From IMG/VR virus record IMGVR_UViG_3300014202_000529, positions 104,790 to 168,789 of that record: DNA of 64,000 nt; one strand, written 5' to 3'. This stretch comes from a virus. Lineage: Duplodnaviria; Caudoviricetes. How positions within the stretch are numbered: the first letter of the stretch is position 1; every line of letters begins with the position of its first letter. Below are positions 172 to 58,092 of this stretch, in pieces. The notes under the pieces are model-generated. The model did not search any database. It saw only the letters and a list, made by a program, of their open reading frames with translations, and was not told the origin of the DNA. Position numbers and translations under genes: made by a program.

Positions 172-189
172 GATGGTGCTACCCTTTCC

Positions 190-312
190 TTATTTTTTAC
201 CGCAAATGCGCTTCGAGTTCCTGTTGCACCAACAGCCTTTGGGGCATGGACATACATTCGGATTCTCATTGGCATGATTGCAGAAGATTGGTGAATCTGT
301 TTTCTTTTTCAT
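190..312 (-). CDS. Small Cys-rich peptide (40 aa)
   Basis: Manual translation MKKKTDSPIFCNHANENPNVCPCPKGCWCNRNSKRICGKK; ATG overlaps the thyX stop (TAATG). Confidence 0.6.
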   Translation of the reverse strand: MKKKTDSPIFCNHANENPNVCPCPKGCWCNRNSKRICGKK

Positions 313-22809: not shown

Positions 22810-23001
22810 CTATTCTTCTGATGTAACTATGGGGAATATGGATGCTCCCCAACTTCCCCTGCAACCTTCTGACGGACATATCCAATTACCAAGATCAATC
22901 AACAATAACTCAGTGGGGTGATACTCACCCCCACAACGAATACAATGAACCAACGACACCGGACGCCAATTTGTTTCAGCATAAATTTCATGTGGTGTCA
23001 C
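22810..23001 (-). CDS. Small Zn-finger protein
   Basis: CIRC...CPSEGC; start overlaps the polymerase stop. Confidence 0.55.
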   Translation of the reverse strand: MTPHEIYAETNWRPVSLVHCIRCGGEYHPTELLLIDLGNWICPSEGCRGSWGASIFPIVTSEE

Positions 23002-25544
23002 TTAAAGAACCCCTCTAATGTACTGGTTTTCTCTGTGTGCCAATTTATCTTATCTAGGACAATTCGCAATGGTTCAATAAAACTCTTTTCAAATTGGTAT
23101 CGATAATCCACCATAGACTCTAAATTCAATTCCTTTGGAATACGAGAAAGAAATGCGATAACAGGAACACCAAGAGGATTTGGACTCTTGAGGGAAATGA
23201 ATTTGATCTTCTCGCCACTCTTGATCAACTCATATGTCCCATCGAGGTTTTTTTCTTTAATGAAGTTATTATAGACCAAAGCAGCTTTCACATGCATGGG
23301 CGACCCTTTGATGTATATATCCTTCATGTCTGTATATTCTTCTAACTTATTGACAGTTCTGGGAAACCCAATCTCAGATAGTGGTAGAGTGTTAAACTCC
23401 TTTCTGAACTGATAGATGAAGTCTATAACATTCTCTTCTGTCCCCGTCATAATAATCTTAAGTGCTTCTTTAATTTTATCTCTGCATGCGGAAGGAGTAG
23501 ATGACTTTACAGCTTCCAACCCCTTAATTTTTAAATCTGGTTCTTTATAACGAACTCCTTCTTGATCCCAGACATTCAGAATGTATCTCTTCTTGGCAGT
23601 CCATATTGCCGTGTCAGCAAGACACTCCCTCTTCATCCTCATCTTCTGCTTATAGGCTCGAACATACACAGCAAGTTCTTTGTATGACTTTTCTATGAAT
23701 AGGTTAATTTTCTGGCAGGCTTTGTCCATCCAATCAATCAACTCTGGTGTACTTGGAAGATTGTCCCCAAACACCATACGAGCTAGACCTTCTAAGCTCA
23801 AATAGATGGAATCGGTGTCTGATGCTAGAACATAATCTTTATTCGTCTTTAACATCTTATTCATAAACTCATTGAGTTTTTTCTCTATCCAACGAATACT
23901 CAATTGACCAGCAAGGGTGACTGCTTCGGCAATTCGCACATCAAAGAATCTAAAATATTCATTACCCATTGCACCGTATGCGGAAACAAGATTGACCTTC
24001 TTGGCAAGCTGAAGGTTCATATACCTAGAAATAAGATTCTCCAACTCTTTCTTTCGAGTAGGATCTGTGCAATTTTCTTTTTCTTTTTGAGCCTCTATTT
24101 GCTTTTTCTTATAGATGACGCGGGCATTATACATCGTTTCCATAATCTCAGCAAGAAACCCCTGCTTATCAGTTCTAAACAACTGCCCATTTGGTGTGAT
24201 GGTGCACCCTTCCAACACCGACAAATCTAACTTTTGATCTAAAAAGGAATCAACTGTGATATTCAGTCTCAAAAGTTCCTTCATCGGTTCAGTGTAATCT
24301 TTCGGTTCGATTAATGTTTCAGGTGAAAGATTATACTGCATCATTAAATGTGGATAAAGACTATCTAAGTCAAATGAACCAACTAACCGATGCAACCCCA
24401 TTTGAGGGTCCTTTACATAAGCCCCCTCGTATGCTTTAGTCTTATGATTTTGTTTTTTTGGTGGGATAACGATATTCTTCTTTCGCAGATGGTTGTAGCA
24501 AATTGTATCCCACATGCGAACCTGACTAAACATGTCTTCATAATTGGTCTTGTTATCATATGCGAGGGTAAGTGCCATGTCGATCAACCGACCCTTCACA
24601 TTTAACTTTTCCACCAATTCAACGTCATGAATATTGTACTCAATAAACCGCTGGTAGTTACTCCTGTACAAATCATGAAGGTTGTCATAATCAGAATAGT
24701 CCAGCTTTCTCTCTTTCAGCTCCACATGAGCGATATGATCAAGCTTGTAGGATTCTTGGTTACTCTTGGGGGAATACTTTCTAAAGAGCTGTAAATAGTC
24801 TAGTGTCGATATACCCAGAATGTCAAACACTCGTTGTTCTTTACCATAGAAATGTTCAGTGTTGAGGGTAATCTTACCCCAAGGAGATAACCATTTAGCT
24901 TTCTCCTCACCAAAAAGAGGTAGAGCACAAATACGACCCACAATATAAGGAATATCGAAGGTCTTTACATTCCACCCAGTAATCACATCAGGGTATTCCT
25001 CTTTCCAAAATTCCAAAAACTGCTCAATCAAATCATGTTCATCTCTGCAGCGATGATATTTGATGTCCCCGCGATGTTCTTTATAAGACCCACAACCAAA
25101 CACATCATAGTAAGAACGATTGGACAGCTTCACTGTGATAGCGGTAATTGGGTTTTCACATTTCTCAATATTCGGCATACCATGCTCGGTGCCGACTTCG
25201 ATGTCAATATACGCAACCACAACATCAGAAATGTTCCAATCAATAGTATCTTCTGGATGTTGGTCAGAAATGAAAGTGTATTCGAATTTCGTATTTCCGT
25301 AGATAGTGAACCCATCGACATCTTTGTATTTTGTTAGATATTCCCGCGCTTCATAAATCGAGGAAAATTTGAGGGTATCCACCGCATTGCCATGAAGATC
25401 TTTCCAAGTAGTGGAGAGGGGAGAATGGGAAGGGACAAAAAGAGTAGGTGAGTATTCTTTCTTCAAGCGTACTCGCCGACCGTTATCAACACCACGATAA
25501 TAAATGTAGTTGCCCCTGCAGGCAACATGCGTATAAAATTTCAT
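22998..25544 (-). CDS. gp43: Family B DNA polymerase (T4 gp43-like)
   Basis: DIEV exonuclease, SFDLDSLYPH, KKVNLVSAYG, SDTDS, KKRY; start set at MKFYTHV. Confidence 0.97.
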   Translation of the reverse strand: MKFYTHVACRGNYIYYRGVDNGRRVRLKKEYSPTLFVPSHSPLSTTWKDLHGNAVDTLKFSSIYEAREYLTKYKDVDGFTIYGNTKFEYTFISDQHPEDTIDWNISDVVVAYIDIEVGTEHGMPNIEKCENPITAITVKLSNRSYYDVFGCGSYKEHRGDIKYHRCRDEHDLIEQFLEFWKEEYPDVITGWNVKTFDIPYIVGRICALPLFGEEKAKWLSPWGKITLNTEHFYGKEQRVFDILGISTLDYLQLFRKYSPKSNQESYKLDHIAHVELKERKLDYSDYDNLHDLYRSNYQRFIEYNIHDVELVEKLNVKGRLIDMALTLAYDNKTNYEDMFSQVRMWDTICYNHLRKKNIVIPPKKQNHKTKAYEGAYVKDPQMGLHRLVGSFDLDSLYPHLMMQYNLSPETLIEPKDYTEPMKELLRLNITVDSFLDQKLDLSVLEGCTITPNGQLFRTDKQGFLAEIMETMYNARVIYKKKQIEAQKEKENCTDPTRKKELENLISRYMNLQLAKKVNLVSAYGAMGNEYFRFFDVRIAEAVTLAGQLSIRWIEKKLNEFMNKMLKTNKDYVLASDTDSIYLSLEGLARMVFGDNLPSTPELIDWMDKACQKINLFIEKSYKELAVYVRAYKQKMRMKRECLADTAIWTAKKRYILNVWDQEGVRYKEPDLKIKGLEAVKSSTPSACRDKIKEALKIIMTGTEENVIDFIYQFRKEFNTLPLSEIGFPRTVNKLEEYTDMKDIYIKGSPMHVKAALVYNNFIKEKNLDGTYELIKSGEKIKFISLKSPNPLGVPVIAFLSRIPKELNLESMVDYRYQFEKSFIEPLRIVLDKINWHTEKTSTLEGFFK

Positions 25545-25569
25545 AAATGAAATGCTTTCACAAATGGAA

Positions 25570-25914
25570 TTAACGACCGCTCGGCAACACCAACCCTGAC
25601 GCACCACCAGGAAGAACCAATCCACTACCAAAATTGGTGCTATAGTTATTAACTAGATCTGCCATCGGGGTCAAGACAGAAAGAATATCGTTTGCAGAAA
25701 ACACAACTCCACTTTCCCACTCAACTGTATACTGCATGAATGGGGTGAATGCCATACCCACCTTACCCTGTGCTGCTTCTGCTTCTGTGCGAGGACCAAT
25801 AACCAACTGAACCGGTTTCTTGATTGTCACTTTACCGATGGTAGCATCAACCTCAGTGAATTCACCAACAAGCTGTAGACCATTATTGAAGAGAACCAAT
25901 TTCACATCACTCAT
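25570..25914 (-). CDS. Conserved hypothetical protein upstream of gp43
   Basis: Sm-like beta pattern ending FGSGLVLP, typical of this locus in T4-like phages. Confidence 0.7.
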   Translation of the reverse strand: MSDVKLVLFNNGLQLVGEFTEVDATIGKVTIKKPVQLVIGPRTEAEAAQGKVGMAFTPFMQYTVEWESGVVFSANDILSVLTPMADLVNNYSTNFGSGLVLPGGASGLVLPSGR

Positions 25915-26853: not shown

Positions 26854-27450
26854 TTACACCCACATAGAACGACGATGTTTAATGAGCAATTGGAGCATTG
26901 TTTGATCTTCTTCATGATATTTATCTTCCAATTCACCAGCTTCTTTCAATTTTTGACTGTAGATCTTTGTAAATTTACGAGACTTCCCATGTGGTGTGGG
27001 TTCATATCGCTCAAAACTTTCATCTTCTGCAAAATCCCAAGGGTCTTGTCGTTGTGGACGATCATGTTTCCAAAACTTATAGAGTTTATAAAATGCTTCT
27101 GCAGATTCCGATTGAGAGGGGTGTTCATCTTTTAATGACATTTCCCATTTTAATTTAAGAAGACCCTGGAGAGCATTTCTTCGATATGTGTGAGGAATTA
27201 ACCATCTGAGGGTTGGAATTTCATCCAATAGTTCAAAAAGATTCTGTAGTGGAGTATTGAGGTAATCGGGTCCAGCATAGGTGCAGTCAATCTCAACATA
27301 ATCAACAAGGACCTGAAATGCTGCATGAAGAAGTTGATCATCAGGATCATGATATAGTCCGTACCCATAATCCTTATTTTTTATAATAACTTTATGAGAT
27401 GGACATATGAAGTAGTTATGTAGGAATGGTAGAATCTCTTTAAAATTCAT
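26854..27450 (-). CDS. Conserved phage hypothetical protein
   Basis: LLHAAFQVLVDYVE...EDQTMLQLLIKHRRSMW. Confidence 0.7.
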   Translation of the reverse strand: MNFKEILPFLHNYFICPSHKVIIKNKDYGYGLYHDPDDQLLHAAFQVLVDYVEIDCTYAGPDYLNTPLQNLFELLDEIPTLRWLIPHTYRRNALQGLLKLKWEMSLKDEHPSQSESAEAFYKLYKFWKHDRPQRQDPWDFAEDESFERYEPTPHGKSRKFTKIYSQKLKEAGELEDKYHEEDQTMLQLLIKHRRSMWV

Positions 27451-27471
27451 AATATTATTAAGTCCTATATT

Positions 27472-27895
27472 CGCTTCGCGTCTTCGATGTTCTATTTTAA
27501 ATTATTGTGGGTAGAAAGATTCCCTAGAATCCATGACCAGTGACAACTATTGTTGCAGGTCAAGTCCACCAGAAAATCTGGTGACATCATCAAGTGGAAT
27601 TTGATGCCGGGTGCGAGCCGTGGTCTCTATCCACTGATTAAGGACACTCCTACTTATTTGTAGGTAGTTACTTCATGAAGAGACGGTGTTGTGTTACCGC
27701 GAGTAGGTTCCTCGATCACCCCAGTCGGTTGACTGCTCTGTTTCATCCTGGTTGCTTGTAAACATAAACCCAACCACCGGAACGGTAGAATTTAGTGATT
27801 CATGAAGACTTATCCACTAAACCCCTTCACTCTTTTTCAAGTGAGTCACTTAATTTAGAACGGATGACTATTATTCATAATATAAATTATATGAA
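27472..27895. ncRNA. Candidate large structured non-coding element (ncRNA or ssDNA-structured origin)
   Basis: Largest intergenic gap in the window; about 14 short stem-loops in series; no ORF in the sense direction. Confidence 0.55.
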
Positions 27896-27913
27896 ATGTA
27901 TGGGTGGTATTGT

Positions 27914-28213
27914 TTACTCATCAGGAAATGGTGAATTTAATACCTTATCCTCTTCTATTTGTCTCTGTTTTATTATTTTATTTAATGCTTGTTTTTCATA
28001 TTTTTTAATATCTTTTGATATATTTTGACTTTGTATGTTACGAAGCTCTGTTATTTTATAGGTCAGGTCTTTCTGGTTGAGATTATAATCATTTAAAAAA
28101 CTAAACCATACCTTCTGGTCTTTTTTGGGGATAATTTGAAACACCAATGCTTTATAGAATTTCACTTGTTTTTCTGATGGAGGTTTGATCAACCTATGGT
28201 GTATGGTATTCAT
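27914..28213 (-). CDS. AT-rich basic hypothetical protein (99 aa), leaderless
   Basis: PPSEKQVKFYKAL motif; own sigma70 promoter directly upstream; no SD. Confidence 0.65.
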   Translation of the reverse strand: MNTIHHRLIKPPSEKQVKFYKALVFQIIPKKDQKVWFSFLNDYNLNQKDLTYKITELRNIQSQNISKDIKKYEKQALNKIIKQRQIEEDKVLNSPFPDE

Positions 28214-28221
28214 TGCCCAAT

Positions 28222-28250
28222 ATTGTATATTATTAACTAATCAATGTCAA
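28222..28250 (-). promoter_or_regulatory. sigma70-type promoter
   Basis: TTGACA-N17-TACAAT; -10 box ends 8 nt before the ATG at 28213. Confidence 0.75.
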
Positions 28251-28253
28251 GAC

Positions 28254-28652
28254 TTATTTTGGGAGTTTTTTGCCGATGGTATATTTTGCAACAAGTTTCC
28301 AATCTGGTTTTTCCTTGAATGATAGAATCTTGATATGATGCAGGGGACATGTTTCAACAATAACCCCAGTGTTAATGACCTTCACCAACCCCCATTCCTC
28401 TAGAAGCTTTGCAATGGTGTTACGACGCGAGATATCGCTATCACTGATTGTTGATGGTTTTCCATCTAACGCAAAAAGTTCCTTAAAATGGCAGATATAA
28501 TACTTTCCGCGCTTATGGAGAATGTGACATGATTGATAGATGATTTTATCGTTCTGGGATGCAACACCAATTCGACTGAGTGTTTCGCGTACTTTATGGA
28601 AATCATCTGGAGTAGGTAGGGACACTTCTATAAATGTGGAAAGATCAATCAT
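28254..28652 (-). CDS. regA: Translational repressor RegA
   Basis: DDFHKVRETLSRIGVAS...QSCHILHKRGKYYICHFKELF. Confidence 0.95.
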   Translation of the reverse strand: MIDLSTFIEVSLPTPDDFHKVRETLSRIGVASQNDKIIYQSCHILHKRGKYYICHFKELFALDGKPSTISDSDISRRNTIAKLLEEWGLVKVINTGVIVETCPLHHIKILSFKEKPDWKLVAKYTIGKKLPK

Positions 28653-28673: not shown

Positions 28674-29060
28674 TTATGTTTTTTGATTCCCTCCCTTATC
28701 TGTTACCTTTAGAACCTGCTGTATTTGTTCTCTAGTGAGAGCGCGAAGGATTTCAAATGCTTTCGTATTTGAGCATTCAAATAGGTCTTTGATCGCTTCG
28801 ATCTGCTCATTAGTTTCAGGTTTAACAAACTTATGGTAAGGGCGTTTCTTTTTACGAATTATATTTATAAAATAGTGGAATTGCAGCTTTTTATCTATAT
28901 GATGACTCTTATTCATTTCATTTGCGGGTAAGATACAATCTAATTCGTAGGAAAGTGCTCGATTGGTGATGAATGGAATATATTCCTTCTCCGTTTGGGG
29001 GTCCACCATCACATCTTGCTTACCAGACTGGATTTGGGCGACGAAATCAAATGGTTTCAT
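28674..29060 (-). CDS. gp62: Clamp loader small subunit (gp62-like)
   Basis: YIPFITNRALS, ANEMN, QFHYFINIIRKKKR; start set at MKPFDF. Confidence 0.88.
   Translation of the reverse strand: MKPFDFVAQIQSGKQDVMVDPQTEKEYIPFITNRALSYELDCILPANEMNKSHHIDKKLQFHYFINIIRKKKRPYHKFVKPETNEQIEAIKDLFECSNTKAFEILRALTREQIQQVLKVTDKGGNQKT
28862..28869 (-). promoter_or_regulatory. Late promoter inside gp62, upstream of regA
   Basis: TATAAATA within the FINI codons. Confidence 0.5.
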
Positions 29061-29557
29061 AATGAGAGCCGTTGGGGTTTGGTTGAACCTTTGATGTAAA
29101 GGGGGTGTCTGGGGTACCCTTCCTTGGTGGTCCCCAGGCAATGCAATTCTGCCTGTCTGAGGACGTTATACACTTCATTGGGGAGACCGAGCTTGCAGGT
29201 TTGGTTGGAAACCTTAAATGCACCCCATGCTGCAATGGTTAATTGAGACGATTGAATGGCATTTTGTATGTGCATGGGGTTTTCCCTACCAATAGGATCT
29301 TGGATGGTAAGTAACCCCTTGGGGTCTGTTGAGCGAAGTGCATAGACATTTACGATGATTAACCCACTGTACCCCCAATTTTGAGAAAATGAGATACATC
29401 GCCTGATTGTTGGATCATCTTGGTAAGCATCTGCGGTAGATGGGTTAAGCATAACCCATGTAACTGTACCATTCATTTCAAGTGAAGGCCAAGAGCGGGT
29501 AAGGAGATATCGGTATTTTTCTGTTGGGTCAAATATTGCCGTACCTAGTTGGGGCAT
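29057..29557 (-). CDS. DUF1643-family protein
   Basis: YRYLL.R.W, MLNPSTAD...DPTIRRC, IAAWG, PRHPLY. Confidence 0.85.
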   Translation of the reverse strand: MPQLGTAIFDPTEKYRYLLTRSWPSLEMNGTVTWVMLNPSTADAYQDDPTIRRCISFSQNWGYSGLIIVNVYALRSTDPKGLLTIQDPIGRENPMHIQNAIQSSQLTIAAWGAFKVSNQTCKLGLPNEVYNVLRQAELHCLGTTKEGYPRHPLYIKGSTKPQRLSL

Positions 29558-30495
29558 TATAAAAACTCGCACTGTAACATGAGTTCGGTGAGTGCTGCCA
29601 TCGTATTGATTTCTTGATCTGCAACAAATGCTTGTTTGTACTGATAGTCTGCAATGATAACGACTGCTTGAGGAATAGATTCCTTCTTCAGGACATCATA
29701 GAGACTGTTATAGATTTTACGATAGAATGATTGAGGGTCTAGTTCATGACTTGCAACCCACCTGCGAAGTGAGCCATAGTCTTTATCCTTCATATACTGA
29801 ATAACTTCTGCTATTTCAACGTCCCCTAGATGAGCGAGAATGCCAGTGTCTATCTTACCAAACTGGGAATATCGTTGCAGCTCGTTGATGATTCGCCGGA
29901 AGTCTGGGAAGAATTTCTTAACAAATTCAGCAAGAACCCGTTTATCATATGTGATATTTTCAGCTTTTAGAATGTTCTGGACCCGCTCAAAGAACATTGC
30001 TGCCATTTTCTGTTTCTCATCCCCCTTCAGTGAGAATTCGACAACAGAACAGCGAGAGTGGAGAGGTTCTATGATTTTATTTTTGAAATTACATGTAAAG
30101 ATGAAAGAACAATTTCCAGCAAATTCTTCCATTGCATTTCTAAGTGCTGGTTGGGTGGAGTTTGGATTTAAATAATCCGCTTCGTCAATAATGATAACTT
30201 TTCGTCCACCCGCCAGCGACATAGAAGAAGCATAGTTTTTTATTTTTGTGCGGAAGGTCTCAATCCCCGATTCATCAGATCCGTTGATGACAATAAAATC
30301 ACACCCAATTTGGTTGCACATTGCTTTTGCTATGGTGGTCTTACCGACACCAGCACCACCAGCTAAAAGAAGATTGGGTATGGTAGAGTTTCGAACGTAT
30401 TCAGAGAAAGGATGTTTTAACCTCTCTGGGAGAATACATTCCTCAACAGTTTTTGGACGATACTTCTCTGCCCACAAAATATGTGTGATACTCAT
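29557..30495 (-). CDS. gp44: Clamp loader large subunit (gp44-like)
   Basis: WAEKYRP, GVGKTT, IIDEAD, LHSRC, FPDFRR. Confidence 0.96.
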   Translation of the reverse strand: MSITHILWAEKYRPKTVEECILPERLKHPFSEYVRNSTIPNLLLAGGAGVGKTTIAKAMCNQIGCDFIVINGSDESGIETFRTKIKNYASSMSLAGGRKVIIIDEADYLNPNSTQPALRNAMEEFAGNCSFIFTCNFKNKIIEPLHSRCSVVEFSLKGDEKQKMAAMFFERVQNILKAENITYDKRVLAEFVKKFFPDFRRIINELQRYSQFGKIDTGILAHLGDVEIAEVIQYMKDKDYGSLRRWVASHELDPQSFYRKIYNSLYDVLKKESIPQAVVIIADYQYKQAFVADQEINTMAALTELMLQCEFL

Positions 30496-30514
30496 ATGCT
30501 TCCTTATTTTGAAC

Positions 30515-31177
30515 TTACTTCGTCTTAGCGTCCAAAGCAACCCAATAGGTAATCTTCCTAGACTGATGTTCAAAGGATGAGATTCCTTTTGAGGAAATGG
30601 TTACTTTGTAGGTACCGGGCAACATTTTCCAATTTTCGGTCTTAAAGAGGAAAAACACAGGGTCTCCTGTGTATGTTGCAACCTCTAACGAATCTGCTGC
30701 TTCAGAATCATTGGTTGCATCGTAGGTGTTAATGAACACCTTTCCATTTTCCCCAACAACAGCGATGTTAGGACTCTTGAGGACGGAAGCTGCTCGCATG
30801 ACCCAGTTGAAATCATCCTCAGTGAGGACGAAACTGATATCATCGCTTGGTACTGTTATGCCGTTTGTGGGCACTCCCTTGAGATTTTCTTCCGCACAAC
30901 AACGATAGACGATAGTGCTTCGACCGCCTTGAATAACAATGTTGTTTCCCTTGATGGTGAGTTCTGGTGTAGCTTTATGGAGAGATAGAATAGAGAGGAA
31001 TTGATTCAGTTCATAAATGCCAAAATCTGTAGGGATTTCCTCATCAATGACCGCTTCTGCGAGGATGGACTTTTCCCTATTCATCGTTCGAAGGAGATTT
31101 CCGGTTCGAAAGAATAAGGAAGTGTTAATGGTTGTGAAATTCTTCAGGACGGTTAGCGTATTCTCTGACAACAACAT
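30515..31177 (-). CDS. gp45: Sliding clamp (gp45-like)
   Basis: LSENTLTVLKNF..IN, FGIYELNQFL, YWVALD. Confidence 0.93.
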   Translation of the reverse strand: MLLSENTLTVLKNFTTINTSLFFRTGNLLRTMNREKSILAEAVIDEEIPTDFGIYELNQFLSILSLHKATPELTIKGNNIVIQGGRSTIVYRCCAEENLKGVPTNGITVPSDDISFVLTEDDFNWVMRAASVLKSPNIAVVGENGKVFINTYDATNDSEAADSLEVATYTGDPVFFLFKTENWKMLPGTYKVTISSKGISSFEHQSRKITYWVALDAKTK

Positions 31178-35523: not shown

Positions 35524-37950
35524 CTATTCTGTTGCAATCATACCGATGAAGCGATTTACCAATACCCTACTAAACTGTTGTTTTTTCCCAGCTTTTACGA
35601 ATGCTGTCAACAGTCTGCCTGGTGTCCATGATTTTCCAGTGTCCACTATCAACCCATCTGACGCTTCCAGGTCACCAGATCCAGGAATAAAATAAAACCT
35701 ACTATATCCTGGTGTATACGACTCGATAAATTTTTCATTAATGAATCGTTCCCTCATTTTTGTAAAATGAACTGCATGCTCACCACTTGTTGAATCGAAT
35801 GTGAATTTAACTCCATCTTTATTATGATGTAGGTATGTCAGTGCAGACTTTAATTCTGATTGTCCTTTGTCGGTGATATAGAAACCATAGATGCCACTTC
35901 CAGTTGTCATTTGAAACCATCGCATGAGTGCGATGGTAAGACCGCGCCGCTCACCCCTTGGAAGACGAATGGTCAAATTCTCTTTCACATCATGAAGGGT
36001 GACTTGGTTATAACTACTAGATGAACTAAAGGTGTTCCTACTGTTGCGATAGTTGCCGGTATAGTAGCATGCATTCGAATCAGCATCCCCATCATGAATA
36101 ATAATGGTGTTGACGATATCGAGACCATGCTTTTTCTTAAACAGTCTGACCACATCGCGGGTACCAATCAAGGCTTCATGTAGTGGGGTCCCGCCCATCC
36201 CCTCATGATAAGGAATATCAAATTTCTTATACATTCCTAATCCATATGAAACCACCAATTGGTTGATCACAGATTCGGTAAATTTAGCATGGTTCATGGT
36301 GGAGTTGAGAATTTCTCGCAAATCAACATCCCGCGTATCCAGATCGCCCATGTTTTTGGTGAATGGTGTTAGTCCTTTGCGTATTCTATCTTCTCCGAAA
36401 TCATGCTGTTTTGTAGATCCGCTTGTTGATGTGAAAGTGAATGCAATAAATGGGATGTTCACTTTTCTACAGAACAATGCCAGAATTAACGTCTGCTCCA
36501 TTGCACCTTTAATGTGTTTTGCCATAGACCCAGACTTATCCATCAGTAGTACAAGACCATGTGATTTCCCGGCTTGCACCTTCATCATTTTTCTGAAGAT
36601 ATCATCAGACAGTCTATAGAATGGAAGTTTTTTTGTATCAATGTCTCCACTATCAGAGAGCTTGACCCGCTTAAAAGCTTTTGCTGCTTTCCTCATTTCA
36701 AACTCTTTGACGAGGAGCATAATGTAGTCATGATTCTTCTTTTTGAATTTGTTATAGAGATCTATGGCATCATTTCTAACTTCTTGGGTCTTGTAGACCT
36801 CTCGAATACCACTATTAACAGTGTCCGCGCTTGTCAATAGATCCTTTAAATTGACCTGCGGAATGTTCACATCGATATATTCCACATTATCAGTTTCAAT
36901 GAGATCATTTTCTTTTTTTCGAAATTCCTCATCGGTTCTGACCCTAGGGATGTAATCTTTTGTCATACCCCCTTTGGTACCATGATCTAATTCTTCGTTT
37001 TTTCCTTTGTTCTTCTGTCCCTTGTCCGACTCTCCTTTTTTTGACTTCTTTTGATTTACATCCGATTTCTTTTCTTGCGTATCCTCTTCACCGCCACCCC
37101 CATTATCGTTTCCATTTTCATCTTTTTCCCCCTGCTCATCCCCCTCACCCTCTTTACTTGACTTCCCTTCTTTACCATTTTCATCACTGCTTCCATCGGA
37201 ATCTTCTCCACCATCCTCATCAGATTCTTCCCCTTCATCGCCGTACTCATATTCATCAGACTCAACCTCATCAAAATCTTCCTCATCCATCATTTCTTGT
37301 TCTTCTTGTTCAGCTTCTTCAAGAAGTTCTTGCATGGTGCGGCTCATTTGCTCTTGCTTTGAGTTCTCACCCTCTTCTTGTTCCTTTTTTGAATACTCAT
37401 ATAGATCATACGCAAGCTGGGAGACTTCTTCCCAGGTGTGGACGGTCATCATTCTGTTATAAAAGACCTTCTCATGATCTTTGAACCGAATGTCAACAAG
37501 GGTACCCAACTTTGCAGACATGTTGAGCTTATCAATAAGATACATTTCGTTATAATTGTCTATGCTCGATGTACCGAAAAAATCACGTTGCAGGAGACTC
37601 TTATAACCGTTCATCATCGGTTTTCTGATACCAGGAAACTTTTCCTTTAAGAACCGTTCAATCCGAGCATCTTCAACAACATTCAGAAAATTACGGAATG
37701 CTTTGTTCCTGGGTCCCTGTTCGATAACATCATGCCATCCCTCTGGTGGGGTGTGGAGTGCATGTGAAATTTCATGACCCAAAAGAAGGTCATACAAATC
37801 CCCATCCATATCTTTCCAGACTGGACAGGTGAGAGTTCTAGTTTTGAGATTGAATCGAGCAGTGCGAGCTTGTTTATGAACTACATTGATGTTCTCAGTA
37901 GCCATAAGCTTTGCGAGGAGTGTTTTTTCTTCTACAGTGGTGGATTGCAT
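35524..37950 (-). CDS. CobT-like protein: HExxH metallopeptidase + acidic linker + vWA domain
   Basis: LAKLMATENI, GHEISHAL, NVVEDARIE, D/E/G-rich linker, MIDAS DKSGSM, GGTPL, HDG. Confidence 0.88.
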   Translation of the reverse strand: MQSTTVEEKTLLAKLMATENINVVHKQARTARFNLKTRTLTCPVWKDMDGDLYDLLLGHEISHALHTPPEGWHDVIEQGPRNKAFRNFLNVVEDARIERFLKEKFPGIRKPMMNGYKSLLQRDFFGTSSIDNYNEMYLIDKLNMSAKLGTLVDIRFKDHEKVFYNRMMTVHTWEEVSQLAYDLYEYSKKEQEEGENSKQEQMSRTMQELLEEAEQEEQEMMDEEDFDEVESDEYEYGDEGEESDEDGGEDSDGSSDENGKEGKSSKEGEGDEQGEKDENGNDNGGGGEEDTQEKKSDVNQKKSKKGESDKGQKNKGKNEELDHGTKGGMTKDYIPRVRTDEEFRKKENDLIETDNVEYIDVNIPQVNLKDLLTSADTVNSGIREVYKTQEVRNDAIDLYNKFKKKNHDYIMLLVKEFEMRKAAKAFKRVKLSDSGDIDTKKLPFYRLSDDIFRKMMKVQAGKSHGLVLLMDKSGSMAKHIKGAMEQTLILALFCRKVNIPFIAFTFTSTSGSTKQHDFGEDRIRKGLTPFTKNMGDLDTRDVDLREILNSTMNHAKFTESVINQLVVSYGLGMYKKFDIPYHEGMGGTPLHEALIGTRDVVRLFKKKHGLDIVNTIIIHDGDADSNACYYTGNYRNSRNTFSSSSSYNQVTLHDVKENLTIRLPRGERRGLTIALMRWFQMTTGSGIYGFYITDKGQSELKSALTYLHHNKDGVKFTFDSTSGEHAVHFTKMRERFINEKFIESYTPGYSRFYFIPGSGDLEASDGLIVDTGKSWTPGRLLTAFVKAGKKQQFSRVLVNRFIGMIATE

Positions 37951-48623: not shown

Positions 48624-49967
48624 TTAGGCGATGTTGCTGATCTTGAGTGCTCTGTAGTACACGTTTGCGCGGGCGGTAAGTGCACCAGAACCCTGAGTTA
48701 GACCTTCTGCAAATGGGTTGGCAACTAGACCGTAACGAGTCTTGAAACCAATCTTTGGCTGGAAGGTTGCGGTATCGATTGCGCGGACCATCTGTAGGGG
48801 AACGTATGGGCAGTAGAAGATACCTGCGTCAAATGCGTTCTGTCCCTTGTATCCGACAACAGCGAACTCTGAGGACTGTGCTGCTGGGAAGTAAGGATCA
48901 ATGTAAACCTTGTAGCGACCTAGCAAGGTACCTGCGTAGGTGTTCCCTGTGTCGTCAACGTTGAGGTTCACGTTATCCTTCAATGCACCAGCGTAGTCGA
49001 GCAAACCAGCAAGAGCGAATGCACTTGCAACGTCTGACGAGCAGATAACAATGTTACCCTTCCCGCGACGAGTCTGCTTTGCGATTGCGTTAGCTTCACG
49101 CTCGATCTGGTACCCAAGACCCTTGATCTTTTCGACCATCCAACGACCGTTTGAATCGGTGTCGAGGTCAAATGTTCCTGCGGTTGTGGTACCAACCTGG
49201 CATCCGACCTTTGCTACTGTGTAGATGGTGCGGATAACTTCACGGTTGATTTCTGCGAGCACTTCTGCTGAAAGGATGTTTGACAACTCTGTCTCTGCAT
49301 CCAAACCATGAACTGCCTTCAAGTCCTGAGCGAGTTCGAGGGTGTATTCTGCCTTCAAAGCGCGAGTCTTTGCAGTAACAGTTACCTTCTCGATTGAGAA
49401 ACCCATCTCAGCAAATGCCTGTGATCCTGAAGATCCCAAAGCTTCTGCGGTTGCAGTTGCGATACCTGCACCAGTTGCCATGGTTGATGCGAACACGTTT
49501 CCGTTACCTAGTGAGGTATCGGATGCCAAGCTGATTGCTGTCTGTGAGGTCAAATCACCAGCCCATCCTGTGTTAGCTTCGTTGTAGAATGCTTCACCCA
49601 AGCGGTCTGTTGAGCTTGCGTAGTTGGAGCGCATTGCGAAGATTAGTCCTGTAGGACCAGTCATTGGCTGAACTCCGCACACATCGTAAGCAATCAAGTT
49701 AGGAAGTGAACGACGAACCAAGCTGATTAGGATAGGGTCATAACCAGCCATAGGACCTGTTGCTGTTGCTGAACCGGTCAATCCACCACCAGTTGCGTTA
49801 ACTGGCGCTGCTTCGTTGATCATACGAGCTTCTTCCTGCATTGCTTTTGCCTGGTTTTCCAAGACAATAGCAGTCACAGCGCGGCGGTGCTTGTCTGCGA
49901 TCTTAGGAAGGTTCTCATGATCGAGAACTGCGGCCCATTTCTTTTCGAGTTGTTCTGATAAAAACAT
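48624..49967 (-). CDS. gp23: Major capsid protein
   Basis: GVQPMTGPTGLIFAMR, RALKAEYTLELAQDLKAVHG, FYCPYVPL, FQPKIGFKTRYG. Confidence 0.98.
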   Translation of the reverse strand: MFLSEQLEKKWAAVLDHENLPKIADKHRRAVTAIVLENQAKAMQEEARMINEAAPVNATGGGLTGSATATGPMAGYDPILISLVRRSLPNLIAYDVCGVQPMTGPTGLIFAMRSNYASSTDRLGEAFYNEANTGWAGDLTSQTAISLASDTSLGNGNVFASTMATGAGIATATAEALGSSGSQAFAEMGFSIEKVTVTAKTRALKAEYTLELAQDLKAVHGLDAETELSNILSAEVLAEINREVIRTIYTVAKVGCQVGTTTAGTFDLDTDSNGRWMVEKIKGLGYQIEREANAIAKQTRRGKGNIVICSSDVASAFALAGLLDYAGALKDNVNLNVDDTGNTYAGTLLGRYKVYIDPYFPAAQSSEFAVVGYKGQNAFDAGIFYCPYVPLQMVRAIDTATFQPKIGFKTRYGLVANPFAEGLTQGSGALTARANVYYRALKISNIA

Positions 49968-49998
49968 GGTTGAACTCCTTCGTTAATTTACTATCCGA

Positions 49999-51084
49999 TT
50001 ACCTGATGTATTGGCTGATTGCTTTTGCTACTGCGTTAACCTCTGGGTCAACAGCGGCAGTCTTCTTTTCTTCCTGCTGTACAGGTTCCGAAGCTTCTGT
50101 TAGAACTTTTGTATCTAACTTTCTTGGCTCTCCTGCAGGGAAGTAATTCTCACGGATTGTGGTTACTTTCTGAGAGTAATCACCATCTGCGGTGTATTCT
50201 ACACTCTCTGCGAGTGTGCGAACTTTCTCAGCCTGTGTCTGTGTCAATCCTTCACAAACACTCTTCAACACTTCTTCTTTCTTAGCTTCTGTCAACTTCT
50301 TCTGCAACTCAACACCCTTAGCAACTTCCTCGTTCAACTTACCAGTCAATTCTTCAACCTTGGTTGCCAATTCATCAACAACGTCCACCTTCTCAGTTGG
50401 GATGTCGATGTAGTGTTCAGTGAAGAGGTTACGCAAACCAGAAATGAACTCTTCAGTTAATTCTGCACGAATTCCCTTTTCCACTGCCAATTCGTTGTCC
50501 TTCATCCACTGCTCAACAACATAGGACAAGAAATCGTTAATCTGCTTTGTCAACTCTTCTTTGATTTCCAATACGCTGGCTTTGAACTGCTCATCCATCT
50601 GCTTCTTCATTTCTTCTTCGATGGTTGCAACCTTGTCGGTTACGCGAGCTTCATAGATGGTTCCAACTTTTTCTGCAAATTCTTTTGATACGGAAGTTTC
50701 GGATGCGAGGATCTTTGCAACGTCTTCCTTTAACTGACCCTTCCATGCTGAATCATAGATGTGTCCAGAAAGACCTGCTTCAACCTTACCCTTAAGATCT
50801 GCTTGTGCGGCATCTGCGCTATCACCCTCTTTAAGAGGATCTATTTCTGTTGCACCACCCTCAACCTTTTTCAAAGGATCTTTGGTATCACTGTCAGGCT
50901 GCTTACCTGGGGGAGTTGCTTCCTTAGCATGTGGATCAAGCTGCTTGTCAACGTTCTTTTCTGGTGTGCTTCCACCAAGATCCTGAACTTCACCTTCTAC
51001 TTTATGAAGTTCTTCCTTGGGTGCTCCTGCAACACTTTGCTTGAGAAGGTCTGCGGCTGCTTCTAACAATGATGTCTTTTTCAT
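49999..51084 (-). CDS. gp22: Prohead core scaffold protein
   Basis: YVVEQWMKDNELAVEKGIRAEL, LFTEHYIDIP, IRENYF. Confidence 0.92.
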   Translation of the reverse strand: MKKTSLLEAAADLLKQSVAGAPKEELHKVEGEVQDLGGSTPEKNVDKQLDPHAKEATPPGKQPDSDTKDPLKKVEGGATEIDPLKEGDSADAAQADLKGKVEAGLSGHIYDSAWKGQLKEDVAKILASETSVSKEFAEKVGTIYEARVTDKVATIEEEMKKQMDEQFKASVLEIKEELTKQINDFLSYVVEQWMKDNELAVEKGIRAELTEEFISGLRNLFTEHYIDIPTEKVDVVDELATKVEELTGKLNEEVAKGVELQKKLTEAKKEEVLKSVCEGLTQTQAEKVRTLAESVEYTADGDYSQKVTTIRENYFPAGEPRKLDTKVLTEASEPVQQEEKKTAAVDPEVNAVAKAISQYIR

Positions 51085-51114
51085 GAATAATCTCCTTGAG
51101 TAATGCGTAAAAGT

Positions 51115-51122
51115 TATTTATA
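51115..51122 (-). promoter_or_regulatory. Late promoter for gp22-gp23
   Basis: TATAAATA 30 nt upstream of gp22. Confidence 0.85.
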
Positions 51123-51148
51123 ATAATCAGAATTTTGAGAGTAGTTAA

Positions 51149-51802
51149 TTACAACTTTCTCAAAAAATCCTCAAACAACTTAACTGCGGTTTCTTCTATC
51201 TGTGAACGGGATGCTAACTCTATGGTTTTCTTTGCTTTTTCGATGTCCTTCTCAACATAATGGTCTTCGATAAACAACCACTCTTTTCCTTCCATGATAC
51301 CCTGCACAAATGCATCTGGTGCGGAAGGATCTGCAACAATATCTGCAGCGGTTGCTAATTTAAAATCATCTTCAACTAAGTCGATACCATTAGGTCCAGG
51401 AATGACGGACCCCAGCCCGCGAGTTGATACACCTAATGATGCACCGCCATCTAGTAGGTTTCTGACAATCATGCCCATTGGGGTTTCGAGGATAGCAGCT
51501 TTTCCGTAGAAATCATTCCCCTCAGCACGAAGGACCTTGATTAAGTGGGATACGCGATCTAGGTTGATAGATGGGGTGTTTGGGTGTCCGAGTTCACCAT
51601 ACGCACGGTTAGGCTTAATGTACTGTTCATTGTATCGCTGTGATTCTTTAAGAAGAGTTTCGAGACGGTACTGACGCCTGTTCTTGTTGGGTCTTTCCGC
51701 TTGCATGAAGATACCTTCTATAAAGTATCCTCGCTTACCAGTTTTCTGGTCTGCTTCTGTGAGAAACTTTACTTCTGTAACACATTCCTTAATCAGTTTC
51801 AT
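51149..51802 (-). CDS. gp21: Prohead protease
   Basis: IEGIFMQ, GELGHP, GVSTRGLGS, DIVADPSAPDAFV. Confidence 0.96.
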   Translation of the reverse strand: MKLIKECVTEVKFLTEADQKTGKRGYFIEGIFMQAERPNKNRRQYRLETLLKESQRYNEQYIKPNRAYGELGHPNTPSINLDRVSHLIKVLRAEGNDFYGKAAILETPMGMIVRNLLDGGASLGVSTRGLGSVIPGPNGIDLVEDDFKLATAADIVADPSAPDAFVQGIMEGKEWLFIEDHYVEKDIEKAKKTIELASRSQIEETAVKLFEDFLRKL

Positions 51803-51827
51803 CTACGTTCTCCTGCAGGGGTATCCC

Positions 51828-52184
51828 TTAGATCTGTTGTGTATCGACGTTATAGGTTGCTCTTTTAGCAATGGTAATAATAGCAGTTCCACCATTAGTG
51901 ACGGACGCTGTAACACTTGATGTTGATAGGTTCGCAATCGGCATTTCGTCATGCTGCCAATATCCAGAACCAAATACTTTGAGAACTCTCGTAGCTCCCC
52001 TGAATACGTCAACCTGTCCGACTGTAGAATTTGTAGACCACTTGACACTTGTAATGACAAGCGCATTGACATTTTCCCTAGCGGTATTTGCAGAGAAATC
52101 TACTAGGTTTAATGTTGGTGATGCACCATCAATGATGATGAGTGTTGAGGGTCCTTTAAATTTATTCTTAAGTTCGTATGACAT
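51828..52184 (-). CDS. Conserved hypothetical head-region protein
   Basis: Between the prohead core genes and gp21; beta-rich. Confidence 0.7.
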   Translation of the reverse strand: MSYELKNKFKGPSTLIIIDGASPTLNLVDFSANTARENVNALVITSVKWSTNSTVGQVDVFRGATRVLKVFGSGYWQHDEMPIANLSTSSVTASVTNGGTAIITIAKRATYNVDTQQI

Positions 52185-52196
52185 TGTGGTTTCCTC

Positions 52197-52601
52197 TTAC
52201 TTGATTCCCATTGCTTTGCGCTTGCGCATGGTGAGTTTTCTTTTTCGTAACGTCTGCTGCTTATGTGCTCGTCTGAGCCTTGCTGCTCGTTTCTGCTTAA
52301 TCCTATTGCGAATTCTTGTTGCAATAGGTATTCTTTTTAATTTACCAGCGCGAAGAGTAAACCCCTTGACTGCAGATTTTCGTACATTGCGCTGAAGCTT
52401 CCCTCTACGAAACCTTCTACGAATGAGAAGAGTCCTACCCTGTCTAATTACGTTTGCCTCAGAGATAGGTCCGTATACGGATTCTGCAATCTTCTTTTTC
52501 AGCGAGAGAATCCTCTCCTCCACCAATTTATTTAGAGTGGCATGAATCTGCTGCTTTGCCTCCGCTAAATTCTTGGTGATGATGGATACCGCTATGTCCA
52601 T
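52197..52601 (-). CDS. Prohead core protein (gp68-like), very basic C-terminus
   Basis: ISE cleavage-like site, then an R/K-rich tail ending RKRKAMGIK. Confidence 0.7.
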   Translation of the reverse strand: MDIAVSIITKNLAEAKQQIHATLNKLVEERILSLKKKIAESVYGPISEANVIRQGRTLLIRRRFRRGKLQRNVRKSAVKGFTLRAGKLKRIPIATRIRNRIKQKRAARLRRAHKQQTLRKRKLTMRKRKAMGIK

Positions 52602-52602
52602 G

Positions 52603-53391
52603 TTACTTGACGCTCTTCCAAGTAAAATCTAACATCTTATGGAAATGTGGTTTCGACTTCTTTAATAGCAAAGAGAATTTCTTTTTGTTCTCATCATTCA
52701 AAGAATCATGGACAGTGAGAAGCGCATGAGCAGTTGTTGGGTCCACCTTTGTGCTAGAACCATCATCATGTCTAAGTGATTTTGCGGTATGGAATTCTTT
52801 AACTGATCGAAGATGAGAAATAGCATCTTCTTCTAGCACTTCTTCTGTTTGTATCCTAAATTGTTCAAATGATTTCCCTTCATGAACCAAGTTGTGATGA
52901 GGGACATCTGAATGTGAATCATAGCTATTATGTTTCTTGATTGCGCGGTGAACCTGGTTTGCCGACTTGCTACCGAGTTCGTTTAAGTGAACGCCCTTAT
53001 CGCTATGATGCGCGATGCCACTTCCACCCAACCAATTACCATCAAGCTTTTTCCCATCGGTGGAAAGTTTCTTGCTGCCTGGATGTGGCTTCTTGTTGAG
53101 GAATGACTTAATAACTTCATGATCCTTTTTACCAAGGTCAACTTCTAGAATAGTTTCTTGTTCTTCTTTCATCGCTGCAGGAGTGATGAGTGAATCTACA
53201 TCCCCACCAAATGGGACGCTGAAAAACTGATCGAGTTTATCGCTATAGTAGAGTGCGACTAGAGTTTGACCTGGGAAATGACGAATAGACTGTCTGCGAA
53301 GAATGAGGATGTTTGGGGGCAACGCAACACCCGATTCCTGAACAAGTTCAGATTCGTTTAGGTTTTCTCTAAAATCCTTGAAGTTTTTCAT
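52603..53391 (-). CDS. Modular head-internal protein
   Basis: MKNFKDFRENLNE N-terminus; internal KSFEQFR...VLEE; modules bounded by xxE sites. Confidence 0.65.
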   Translation of the reverse strand: MKNFKDFRENLNESELVQESGVALPPNILILRRQSIRHFPGQTLVALYYSDKLDQFFSVPFGGDVDSLITPAAMKEEQETILEVDLGKKDHEVIKSFLNKKPHPGSKKLSTDGKKLDGNWLGGSGIAHHSDKGVHLNELGSKSANQVHRAIKKHNSYDSHSDVPHHNLVHEGKSFEQFRIQTEEVLEEDAISHLRSVKEFHTAKSLRHDDGSSTKVDPTTAHALLTVHDSLNDENKKKFSLLLKKSKPHFHKMLDFTWKSVK

Positions 53392-53395
53392 TTTC

Positions 53396-53707
53396 TTACT
53401 CTTCTAGCCCCGATGACACTGCTGGTGAAAACAAGCTCTGCGCAACAGTTTTCTTATAGTTATCAAGTGCTCCAACAACCCTCTGATTCAATAAATCAGT
53501 GACGATTTCTGTTGCACCAGAATATTCCTTATTTGCAACAAGACTAACGAGAGAACCTAGATGATCCTGATCTTCCGACATGGTTTTCTTTTTTGCTGCT
53601 GCGGCAGAGTCAAGCATAGCTTTTCCCTTTTTAGTGTTGGCTGCTGCATCCAATTCTCGCTTAGCTTTCAATGATCGTTCTCTTACTGCATCTGGTGAAA
53701 GGGACAT
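53396..53707 (-). CDS. Prohead core protein (gp67-like)
   Basis: Directly after the portal; C-terminal KKTVAQSLF. Confidence 0.6.
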   Translation of the reverse strand: MSLSPDAVRERSLKAKRELDAAANTKKGKAMLDSAAAAKKKTMSEDQDHLGSLVSLVANKEYSGATEIVTDLLNQRVVGALDNYKKTVAQSLFSPAVSSGLEE

Positions 53708-53735
53708 GATTGCCTCCGTTGCAAGTCTATAAATC

Positions 53736-53743
53736 TATTTATA
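53736..53743 (-). promoter_or_regulatory. Late promoter
   Basis: TATAAATA between gp20 and the gp67-like gene. Confidence 0.85.
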
Positions 53744-53745
53744 AT

Positions 53746-55449
53746 TTAGCGTTTACGAGCAAAACTCTTAGAAACTTCCCTGTCCAACCCAGGGGTCATG
53801 GATTCTGTTGACTTCTCTTCTCCGTCTGTGGTGTTATCCACAGGGGTTGGTGTGGGTCCGGTAGGTGTCGCTCCGTCCTGTCCACCCTGTTCCAATCCAT
53901 TCTGCTGGCTTCCGTCTGGTCCCATCATAGGGAGAGGAAGTTCCCCACTTTCCTTTTCTTCATCTATTTCCTTCTTCATCTGGTCAACTTCTTCTTCGCT
54001 CAAACGGAGAATGTTTCTCTTGACCCATGAATTTGAGTAATAGATGCCGATATATGGTTGCACTTGTGTGAGTAGGGTAACACGTTCACGAACCAACTCA
54101 GCATCGCGCATTTCTGCAAAGTTGTTATCGTTTTTGAATGTGTAGGAAATATGTTCCCTAAACTTCTCCCATTCCTTGATTGAGCAGACACCCTTTAGGA
54201 CAAGCTCTTGCTTCAGTGCTTCATCAAAGATACGACCAAACTTACTGCGTAAACGACTGATAAACTTAAAGAATTTGACCTCATCCCTAGTGATCTCAGT
54301 TACTCGACCCAGACCCACAATACCACCACCAGCGGATTGTGAATCCAAGCGACCAATAGGAACGTTTAGTGACTTGTAGAGAGCTTTCTGGAAGTACTCA
54401 ACATCTTCCATCTTTCCAAGATTTTCACCACCAGGAAGGGTTGTAATTTCGGTTCCCTTTGACCCTTCTCGGCGAGGAAGCCAGAAATCTTCCAGCATGG
54501 AAAGGTGCTTTCTTTCGTCTCTCAATTCACCAGTGTTTGCATCATACACAAGCTTATTGCGATACTTGGTCATGATGTCTTTTACATATTGCTCTGCTTT
54601 TTGTTTTGGAAGGTTACCAACGTCGATATAGAATATCCTTCTCTCTGGTGCGCGGGAAAGACGATAAATGACAACAGCATCTTCAATCATGCGTAGCTGG
54701 TTAAGAGGTTTAATTGCTTTGTGCAACCAACCAATAACCATTGTTGATTTTGCATCCAGGAGTCCAGAGGGAACAAAAATTACAGAATCCGGTGAAATGC
54801 GGGTTCCTTGATTGACCTGTGCGGTATATGCTTGCGCGGTTAACCCACGGTCATTGTACACATAGTACTCTGTGGTTGCTTTGATAACCTCAACCCCACT
54901 CTTAGGATCTCTGTCCTTCATGATTTCACGAACTTTGCGAATTTTACGCGGGTCAATGTATCGAAGTTCCTGAATACCATCTTTAGGACTATCTGTATTC
55001 ACTACTACTTGAAAATACATTCGTCCATCAACGTACCATCGCTTGAATAGGTCTTCTCCTGCATCTTGGAAAGAGAGCATGCTTTTGATTTTTATAAATG
55101 CTGATTCGATGCTCTTCTTGATGTTTTCGGATACGTTTAATTGGGAGAGATTGATGTCAACAATGTTTCCATCAACATCCTGTGTGACTGCTTCGGTGAC
55201 GATTTCTTCGATAGCTTCTGAGCATTCTGGATGGAGAGACATTTCGCGGTAGCGGGTAATAAGTTCAAGTTCATTGCGAACAGAACCTTCCAAGTCCACA
55301 TAGGTGCCGTAATAGGACCCTTGTGTAATGGTGACTGCGCCATCATCAATTTGGTGTTGGGGGATTACGAGAGTTTGTTGATTTGGAGGTTCTACCTTCG
55401 TAACATCTGGTGTTTTGCCGAACGTATAACCAAAGAGAGACCAAGCCAT
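53746..55449 (-). CDS. gp20: Portal vertex protein
   Basis: WYVDGR, YIDPRKI, NQLRMIEDAVVIYRLSRAPERRIFYIDVGNLP, EDFWLPRREG. Confidence 0.98.
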   Translation of the reverse strand: MAWSLFGYTFGKTPDVTKVEPPNQQTLVIPQHQIDDGAVTITQGSYYGTYVDLEGSVRNELELITRYREMSLHPECSEAIEEIVTEAVTQDVDGNIVDINLSQLNVSENIKKSIESAFIKIKSMLSFQDAGEDLFKRWYVDGRMYFQVVVNTDSPKDGIQELRYIDPRKIRKVREIMKDRDPKSGVEVIKATTEYYVYNDRGLTAQAYTAQVNQGTRISPDSVIFVPSGLLDAKSTMVIGWLHKAIKPLNQLRMIEDAVVIYRLSRAPERRIFYIDVGNLPKQKAEQYVKDIMTKYRNKLVYDANTGELRDERKHLSMLEDFWLPRREGSKGTEITTLPGGENLGKMEDVEYFQKALYKSLNVPIGRLDSQSAGGGIVGLGRVTEITRDEVKFFKFISRLRSKFGRIFDEALKQELVLKGVCSIKEWEKFREHISYTFKNDNNFAEMRDAELVRERVTLLTQVQPYIGIYYSNSWVKRNILRLSEEEVDQMKKEIDEEKESGELPLPMMGPDGSQQNGLEQGGQDGATPTGPTPTPVDNTTDGEEKSTESMTPGLDREVSKSFARKR

Positions 55450-55506
55450 AAACAATCCTTTATTTCACAAGTGGATAATCGGTATGGAAGTATATAGTGT
55501 GATTAT

Positions 55507-55528
55507 GTGGGGGTGGTTAGACCCCCAC
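55507..55528 (-). other. Perfect 8-bp hairpin after gp19 (no U-tract; weak terminator or stabiliser)
   Basis: GTGGGGGT-N6-ACCCCCAC. Confidence 0.65.
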
Positions 55529-55538
55529 GGTGATCCAC

Positions 55539-56093: not shown

Positions 56094-56122
56094 AGTAACT
56101 CCTTGTAGATTCTTCCCCTACC

Positions 56123-58088: not shown

Positions 58089-58092
58089 TTTT

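Follow-up and report, generated by a model that had tools for sequence, protein, structure and literature searches.

A hairpin-rich non-coding spacer downstream of an early promoter in the replication module of a T4-type virus, possibly the tail of a shuffled cassette

What is the stretch of DNA without genes that separates regA from the next conserved gene in the replication module of a T4-type virus: a structured RNA, part of a message, a DNA element or filler? The question was raised by a sequence-only reading of this locus, which described a hairpin-tiled element of ~430 nt and proposed that it is either a large ornate RNA or a replication origin. Here, we call window the whole stretch of DNA that was analysed (64,000 nucleotides, bases 104790-168789 of a virus record that is 168,789 bp long and has a terminal overlap of 91 nt); positions refer to the window, except where they are given as positions of the record.

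The genome is that of a T4-type virus (168.8 kb, 42.8% GC) with a pronounced coding bias, since ORFs of at least 150 aa cover 117.8 kb of the minus strand and 10.8 kb of the plus strand. Its 28 tRNA genes, identified with ARAGORN at 49-61 kb of the record, are all on the minus strand, and near-consensus sigma70 promoters are interspersed among the genes of this cluster (record 49172-61252). An apparent ORF-free stretch of 1.3 kb at record 1-1336 is probably not non-coding: the record was assembled as a circle (91-nt terminal overlap), and its arbitrary start probably cuts through a long gene of the minus strand. The DNA polymerase, gp43, is at most 49% identical to that of any cultured phage, with T4-type cyanophages as best matches, which indicates an uncultured, deep-branching T4-type phage.

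The spacer lies in a slot between regA and gene 43 (Table 1), and its neighbours are replication genes, in agreement with the placement in a replication gene cluster made from the sequence alone. In one T4-type cyanophage, the regA-to-polymerase interval is occupied by other small genes. The gene into which the spacer leads, ORF198, codes for a conserved phage protein of unknown function, without Pfam or PHROG family and with only viral hypothetical clusters retrieved from the protein atlas. Two observations concern the other side of regA: the DUF1643 ORF, also on the minus strand, overlaps, when taken from its first start codon, the listed gp62 start by 85 nt, and a TATAAATA late-promoter word is present inside gp62 (28862-28869, minus strand), 217 nt before the regA start, and may be a late promoter of regA.

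Table 1. Coordinates of the genes and sequence elements around the spacer
Feature	Position	Strand	Remarks
gp44 clamp-loader	29557-30573	minus	
DUF1643 gene	29057-29572		between gp44 and gp62; Pfam E 9.6e-40
gp62	28674-29141	minus	
regA	28254-28652	minus	
sigma70-type early promoter	28222-28250	minus	TTGACA-17-TACAAT; 11/12 consensus matches
ORF99	27914-28213	minus	
Gap (spacer)	27451-27913		between ORF99 and ORF198
ATTCATAATAT, 11-nt direct repeat	27445-27455 and 27873-27883		first copy overlaps the ORF198 start codon; the pair brackets the gap
TTCATGAAGA, palindromic motif, copy 2	27799-27808		in the TTTAGTG/CACTAAA loop
TTCATGAAGA, palindromic motif, copy 1	27672-27681		minus strand reads TCTTCATGAA; ~231 nt before the ORF198 ATG
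Four-hairpin block	27518-27606		~90 nt; read on the minus strand, 68-156 nt before the ORF198 ATG; GATTC/GAATC, TGACC..GGTCA with inner CAAC/GTTG, CACCAGA/TCTGGTG and CATCAA/TTGATG
GACGCGAAGCGAA, anchor	27470-27482	minus	~30 nt before the ORF198 ATG; counterpart in relatives GCGAAGCGAA, 40-90 nt before the ATG
ORF198	26854-27450	minus	
Genes past ORF198		minus	in this order: M15 peptidase/endolysin, MazG-like pyrophosphatase, DUF6561-like ORF, then gp43
gp43, family B DNA polymerase	22998-25631	minus	

Over its 463 nt, the spacer has no ORF of at least 40 aa in any frame, with the exception of a 77-aa plus-strand ORF (27795-28028) that runs antisense into ORF99, and each of the six frames contains many stops; bar this antisense ORF, the element is thus as free of ORFs as had been claimed. 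It is also, as had been noticed, the largest ORF-free gap of the window and, taken as 463 nt, the largest of the genome once the gaps accounted for by tRNA genes are set aside. The described contrast in GC content with the flanks does exist (0.44-0.475 in the spacer and 0.26-0.37 in the flanks), but the spacer is not a GC-rich element, since its value equals the genome mean of 0.428 and the AT-rich flanks are the unusual part. A decayed protein gene was considered and rejected, as the six frames read through stops without a Pfam match and with a best E-value of 0.32 against PHROGs; minus frame 2, the one compared with 5.8 billion proteins, had no match there. We also rejected the bracketing 11-nt repeat as a target-site duplication, because an 11-mer repeat arises in 22% of shuffles and the ATTCATAATAT pair alone is not significant. 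Inspection by eye gave no convincing terminal inverted repeats around the gap. Other ORF-free gaps of the genome not related to tRNAs (195-378 nt) are located at record 94205-94533, 96646-96840, 36575-36952, 61477-61851 and 80162-80484.

The spacer matches no known RNA family; the sequence-only reading had found by eye no match to tRNA, tmRNA, RNase P or group I/II introns. Rfam 15 gave no match at gathering threshold in the whole window and, with E-values up to 10, only three chance matches in 27300-28100 (14-18 bits, against cut-offs of 40-47), the models covered including group I/II introns, RNase P, tmRNA, 6S, GOLLD, ROOL, OLE, HEARO and riboswitches. ARAGORN, which detected the 28 tRNAs elsewhere in the genome, found no tRNA or tmRNA gene in the window. 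A group I intron was likewise rejected, since ORF198 homologues align from residue 2-3 onward, regA is complete and there is no Rfam intron match.

The conservation in related phages that the sequence-only reading had suggested looking for was not found, as the nearest relatives carry other sequence in the slot and the DNA searches were blank. No DNA homologue of 27300-28100 was retrieved with blastn from 50,697 phage records, collections that may omit this genome and very near ones, and neither blastn nor nhmmer gave a homologue of the gap in 82 loci; in five related virus records, only 14-17-nt chance words were matched (E 0.25-0.86). A 20-mer of the spacer had no match in the viral contigs, and a stem-only pattern of two hairpins had no match in viral contigs or genome contigs. 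A covariance model built from the single sequence of the four-hairpin block recovered only itself, both in the five virus records and in 31 of 92 other loci (close relatives and the longest loci).

The hairpins themselves are real. All 14 stems that had been described as tiling the gap are in place, one of them (CGGTG/TACCG) by means of a G-T wobble, and two hairpins gain G-U pairs on the plus strand only, as had also been remarked. Counting perfect hairpins (stem of at least 5, loop of 3-20) in 27500-27900, we obtained 10, against 4.59 ± 1.63 in shuffled sequences, and only 1 of 500 shuffles reached 10. Genome-wide, the mean count is 4.88 over 842 windows of analysis, five of which reach 10; one of the five overlaps the spacer and one is in the tRNA cluster. 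The heptamer GCGAAGC, which we take to be the sequence of an unusually stable DNA mini-hairpin, was given no weight in the analysis.

Comparison of the folding energy with shuffled controls, which had been put forward as a check, showed that the 463 nt fold better than shuffles, with a z-score for RNA of -3.42 on the plus strand, equalled by 0 of 100 shuffles, and of -1.96 on the minus strand, equalled by 4 of 100; with DNA parameters, the z-scores were -3.00 and -2.67 on the two strands. For the core (27500-27800) we obtained -3.07 and -2.11, against mean z-scores of -0.58 (sd 1.03, minimum -2.92) and -0.39 (sd 1.08, minimum -2.55) in 30 random 301-nt windows of the genome. The signal is uneven along the spacer: 27512-27612 reaches -3.40 on the plus strand, a value equalled by 1 of 200 shuffles, and -2.24 on the minus strand (5 of 200), whereas 27612-27740 and 27740-27850 give only -0.7 to -1.3, which 21-47 of 200 shuffles attain. 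The solid feature is therefore the four-hairpin block and not an ornate fold of 430 nt. Stem density, which the sequence-only reading took as its signal, is thus in excess, but the excess of folding is confined to ~90 nt instead of being spread over 430 nt. In a composition-adjusted minimum-free-energy scan of the whole genome, the windows of the spacer rank 45-50 (plus strand) and 114-341 (minus strand) of 2248, which places the fold in the top 2% at best and not as an outlier. In the same scan, windows at 94.2-94.4 kb and 96.6-96.8 kb of the record are among the 25 best-folding of the 2248 strand-windows, on both strands, and these gaps may be better candidates for structured RNAs than the spacer.

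The promoter that had been placed at 28.2 kb is also real and reads along the minus strand, as do 22 of the 23 near-consensus sigma70 promoters of the genome, this one included (28250-28222). Its -35 hexamer begins 4 nt past the regA stop and its -10 hexamer is followed, 8 nt downstream, by the ATG of ORF99, so that the message would have little or no leader; a Shine-Dalgarno sequence is not apparent for ORF99 (28213-28227). ORF99 (26-29% GC) is the first gene of the lineage-specific segment and is an ORFan, without Pfam or PHROG family, without relative in the viral contigs and matching only itself among 5.8 billion proteins. From base composition (an order-of-magnitude estimate and not the output of a tool), the chance of an open frame of 99 codons in such AT-rich DNA is ~1e-4. 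The 50 nt upstream of the promoter, which are the end of regA, fold with only -3.6 kcal/mol and form no stem-loop; an upstream stem-loop is present at 8 of the 22 minus-strand promoters of the genome. There is no plus-strand promoter with at least 9/12 matches to the left of the hairpins, no TATAAATA late promoter in the gap (10 on the minus strand genome-wide), no promoter-like copy on the ORF198 side, no known leader motif in the spacer and, in the gap, no U-run after the hairpins of the kind seen in the clear terminators of this genome.

The same slot was then compared with that of relatives. Homologues of ORF198 (60-62% identity) were identified in two viral contigs and four metagenome contigs, where regA is 82-86% identical, and these relatives represent three types of sequence (L002/L005/L092, L003/L004/L090 and L089/L091). 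None of them has an ORF in the 350-450 nt that separate regA from the gene after it, and blastn alignments of the window with the three types end at the regA stop and restart at the ORF198 ATG. Only two short anchors are common to the window and the leaders of the relatives: GACGCGAAGCGAA, with its counterpart, and a palindrome (TCTTCATGAAG), which the relatives carry as TCTTCATGAAGA 240-283 nt before the start of the next gene. This palindrome is present in 2 of 80 regA loci, exactly the two that also carry ORF198. Beyond the two anchors, homology of the 233-nt leader with those of the relatives was rejected, as global alignment gave z-scores of 1.5-2.6, with 5-28 of 300 mononucleotide shuffles as good. 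The motif TTCATGAAGA was also rejected as a genome-wide regulatory motif, since there are only 4 copies in 168.8 kb, two in the gap and two, judged by eye, in coding sequence.

The intergenic modules of the relatives (L003:2575-3000, L002:2645-3000 and L089:2300-2745) are 75-82% identical among themselves, about as conserved as their coding flanks. They contain short, iteron-like direct repeats (TATCCATTGGTTACA twice, CTTAAATGATA two to three times, AGATTAGAAT twice and GCGAAGCGGA twice) as well as an ATAAATA word resembling a late promoter and, around TCTTCATGAAGA, a block of strong conservation, and they fold with z-scores of -2.3 and -2.0; the three loci gave no Rfam match with E-values up to 1. 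This module could be a regulatory region or an origin and, with its iteron-like repeats, conserved palindrome and three diverged versions, is arguably a better target for follow-up. In L089 and L091, an 86-aa GIY-YIG ORF (L089:2745-3005; Pfam E 6.8e-12) has additionally been inserted immediately upstream of the ORF198 homologue; its product is probably a free-standing homing endonuclease. This insertion singles out the slot as one that mobile DNA targets and, together with the different modules, indicates that the DNA taken up there varies between lineages.

A closer relative is known as fragments, in Logan contigs of DNA run X2 (depth 2-6). Compared with the window, the segment formed by promoter, ORF99 and gap is 95-99% identical in X2, whereas the adjacent regA is 79-91% identical. 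The pieces over the gap have 2/90, 3/81 and 1/81 differences and the piece over the gap end and the 3' part of ORF99 has 7/158, against 23/190, 11/125 and 11/77 for the regA pieces; at this depth single differences may be errors, and the contrast between regA and the segment is nevertheless found within a single contig. This boundary-spanning contig has 2 listed differences in 28197-28253 (ORF99 start and promoter) and 15 in regA (28254-28324). Strains could be mixed in these low-depth contigs, apart from the one crossing the boundary of regA. In ORF198 there is a piece of 39 nt, the flanks of which are dissimilar. The two runs labelled RNA (X3, X4) contributed no contig here, which carries no information on expression, and parts of the spacer region left uncovered by contigs in X1 and X2 are equally uninformative. 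By manual count, third codon positions account for 21 of 26 listed differences in regA and for 2 of 6 in ORF99. Since ORF99 is equally alike and its differences bear no mark of coding constraint, the likeness is better explained by a recent exchange of the segment than by selection, and the mosaic identity points to a recent cassette exchange.

Considering these data, we tentatively read the spacer, with a confidence somewhat short of even, as the minus-strand intercistronic leader of the downstream gene, with the hairpin block acting on the mRNA, and as the tail of a shuffled early cassette. The lineage-specific segment of ~800 bp, composed of the promoter, the ORFan ORF99 and the spacer, would have replaced an earlier content of the slot that regA and ORF198 enclose in the T4-type replication module and that is prone to recombination. 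Read-through from the early promoter would transcribe the spacer on the minus strand, via ORF99 into ORF198, and its transcript would serve ORF99 as the 3' untranslated part of its message and ORF198 as a 5' leader. The block may then act as a barrier in the stability or processing (decay) of the mRNA, or in attenuation or translation control of ORF198. We infer the strand, the transcription and the hairpin role of the spacer; the leader reading draws on the long ORFs and the 22 of 23 sigma70 promoters that are on the minus strand, one of which is upstream of the gap. Against it are the lack of a U-run after the hairpins and of a known leader motif, and the better fold of the plus strand, together with its plus-only G-U extensions, favours what would be the wrong strand for a leader.

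Those same plus-strand features, the wobble-extended stems and a block fold equalled by 1 of 200 shuffles, speak for another reading, a new class of structured non-coding RNA that would stand by itself, measure perhaps 100-250 nt with the four-hairpin block at its centre, come from either strand and be carried as cargo of a mobile early cassette. The hairpin density (1 of 500 shuffles), the lack of both a coding remnant and a known family, and the fact that selection on an RNA would also give near-identity despite the 9-21% divergence of regA are in line with such an RNA. Nevertheless, we regard it as unlikely, because homologues are found only in near-identical strains, and hence provide no covariation, no promoter or terminator frames a discrete RNA, the genome-wide rank of the fold is merely in the top 2%, and the adjoining ORF99 is equally conserved without third-position bias (2/6), which favours recent transfer over selection. 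A more specific version appears quite improbable to us: a new small structured RNA, made up of the block and possibly of its flanks, would travel on an early cassette moving between T4-type phages, for instance as a decoy or regulator of host or phage RNA machinery, and both selection and transfer would account for an identity of 96-99% between lineages with 9-21% divergence in regA. As for the large RNA of 430 nt originally proposed, it is not supported: folding beyond chance is restricted to the ~90-nt block, and the element is absent from the nearest relatives.

That two thirds of the spacer fold no better than shuffles is also compatible with filler that has no function, either the scar of a recombination or what is left of earlier cassettes after long decay, and whose hairpins would be relics or chance. 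The sequence is unique to the lineage, in a demonstrably plastic slot, the 11-nt repeat that includes the ORF198 start brackets the gap, and Comeau et al. (2014) describe, for hyperplastic regions of T4-type phages, degraded promoter/stem-loop copies near indels (PMC4122927). Filler seems rather unlikely, however: the hairpin count and the fold of the block are above shuffles, no protein remnant was recognized, whether with Pfam and PHROGs in all six frames or with 5.8 billion proteins in a single frame, the bracketing repeat is not significant, and 463 idle bases would be unusual given the tight packing of T4-type genomes. An element acting as DNA, either an origin made of a promoter and an unwinding region or a group of palindromes bound by proteins or of sites for recombination, would fit the location within the replication module, the strong promoter reading into a stretch of 26-29% GC, the near-equal DNA folds of the two strands, the palindrome TCTTCATGAAGA, which all four lineages have conserved at the same distance from ORF198 and which the remaining 78 of 80 regA loci lack, and the iteron-like direct repeats in the modules of the relatives. 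In the window, however, we found no iterons, the palindromes are all unlike each other, the AT-rich stretch is an open frame of 99 codons, the promoter appears to be of the early sigma70 class rather than of the MotA-type middle class, and the cumulative GC skew has no turn at 132 kb of the record, just a local blip. A GC-skew turn is not obligatory at origins of T4-type phages. We consider a DNA-level element very doubtful, and the origin proposed in the sequence-only reading received no positive evidence, as there is neither a skew inflection nor, in the window, any iteron.

No known family can be tied to the spacer, and nothing yet makes it a family of its own. With GOLLD, ROOL, OLE and HEARO it has in common a structured, ORF-free stretch of several hundred nucleotides in a phage genome; it differs from them in that no model matches at E-values up to 10, only ~90 nt fold beyond chance and there is no family of homologues. 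A discrete RNA from the hairpin block would matter more than a leader, because, to our knowledge, few structured RNAs besides tRNAs are encoded by T4-type phages. The T4 origins ori(uvsY) and ori(34) are R-loop origins, in which a promoter is followed by an AT-rich unwinding stretch, and they use MotA-dependent middle promoters and a DNA unwinding element. The present locus, also in a T4-type genome, resembles them in having a promoter followed by an easily unwound AT-rich stretch (26-29% GC) and differs in its sigma70 early-type promoter and the lack of a skew signal.

Structured leaders and operators of mRNAs are represented in T4 by the gene 43 and gene 32 operators and by stable intercistronic hairpins. 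As in these, short local hairpins precede a start codon in what would be an early transcript of the replication cluster. However, the spacer has its four hairpins in tandem and at a distance of 68-156 nt from the start, instead of one operator at the ribosome-binding site, there is no sequence resemblance to known operators, and no binding protein is known for it.

The closest resemblance is to the promoter-early stem-loop (PeSL) cassettes, which Arbiol et al., in 2010, are said to have found to mediate modular shuffling in T4-type phages. The spacer segment shares with PeSL units an ORFan that varies among close relatives and immediately follows a near-consensus sigma70 early promoter, the location in a plastic slot between core genes, and a mosaic conservation with its boundary at the regA stop. 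Modular shuffling of the PeSL type in T4-type phages is also described by Comeau et al. (PMC4122927). Strict membership fails and only a resemblance is left, since there is no stem-loop just upstream of this promoter, no second alignable copy was found on the other flank, where there is only the non-significant 11-nt repeat, and the cassette carries 463 nt of non-coding sequence, which is absent from PeSL units. If the reading as leader and cassette tail is true, the locus would be a further case of early-cassette swapping between core replication genes of T4-type phages, of interest for phage genome evolution and without surprise for the specialist, its unusual point being the long, hairpin-rich non-coding tail.
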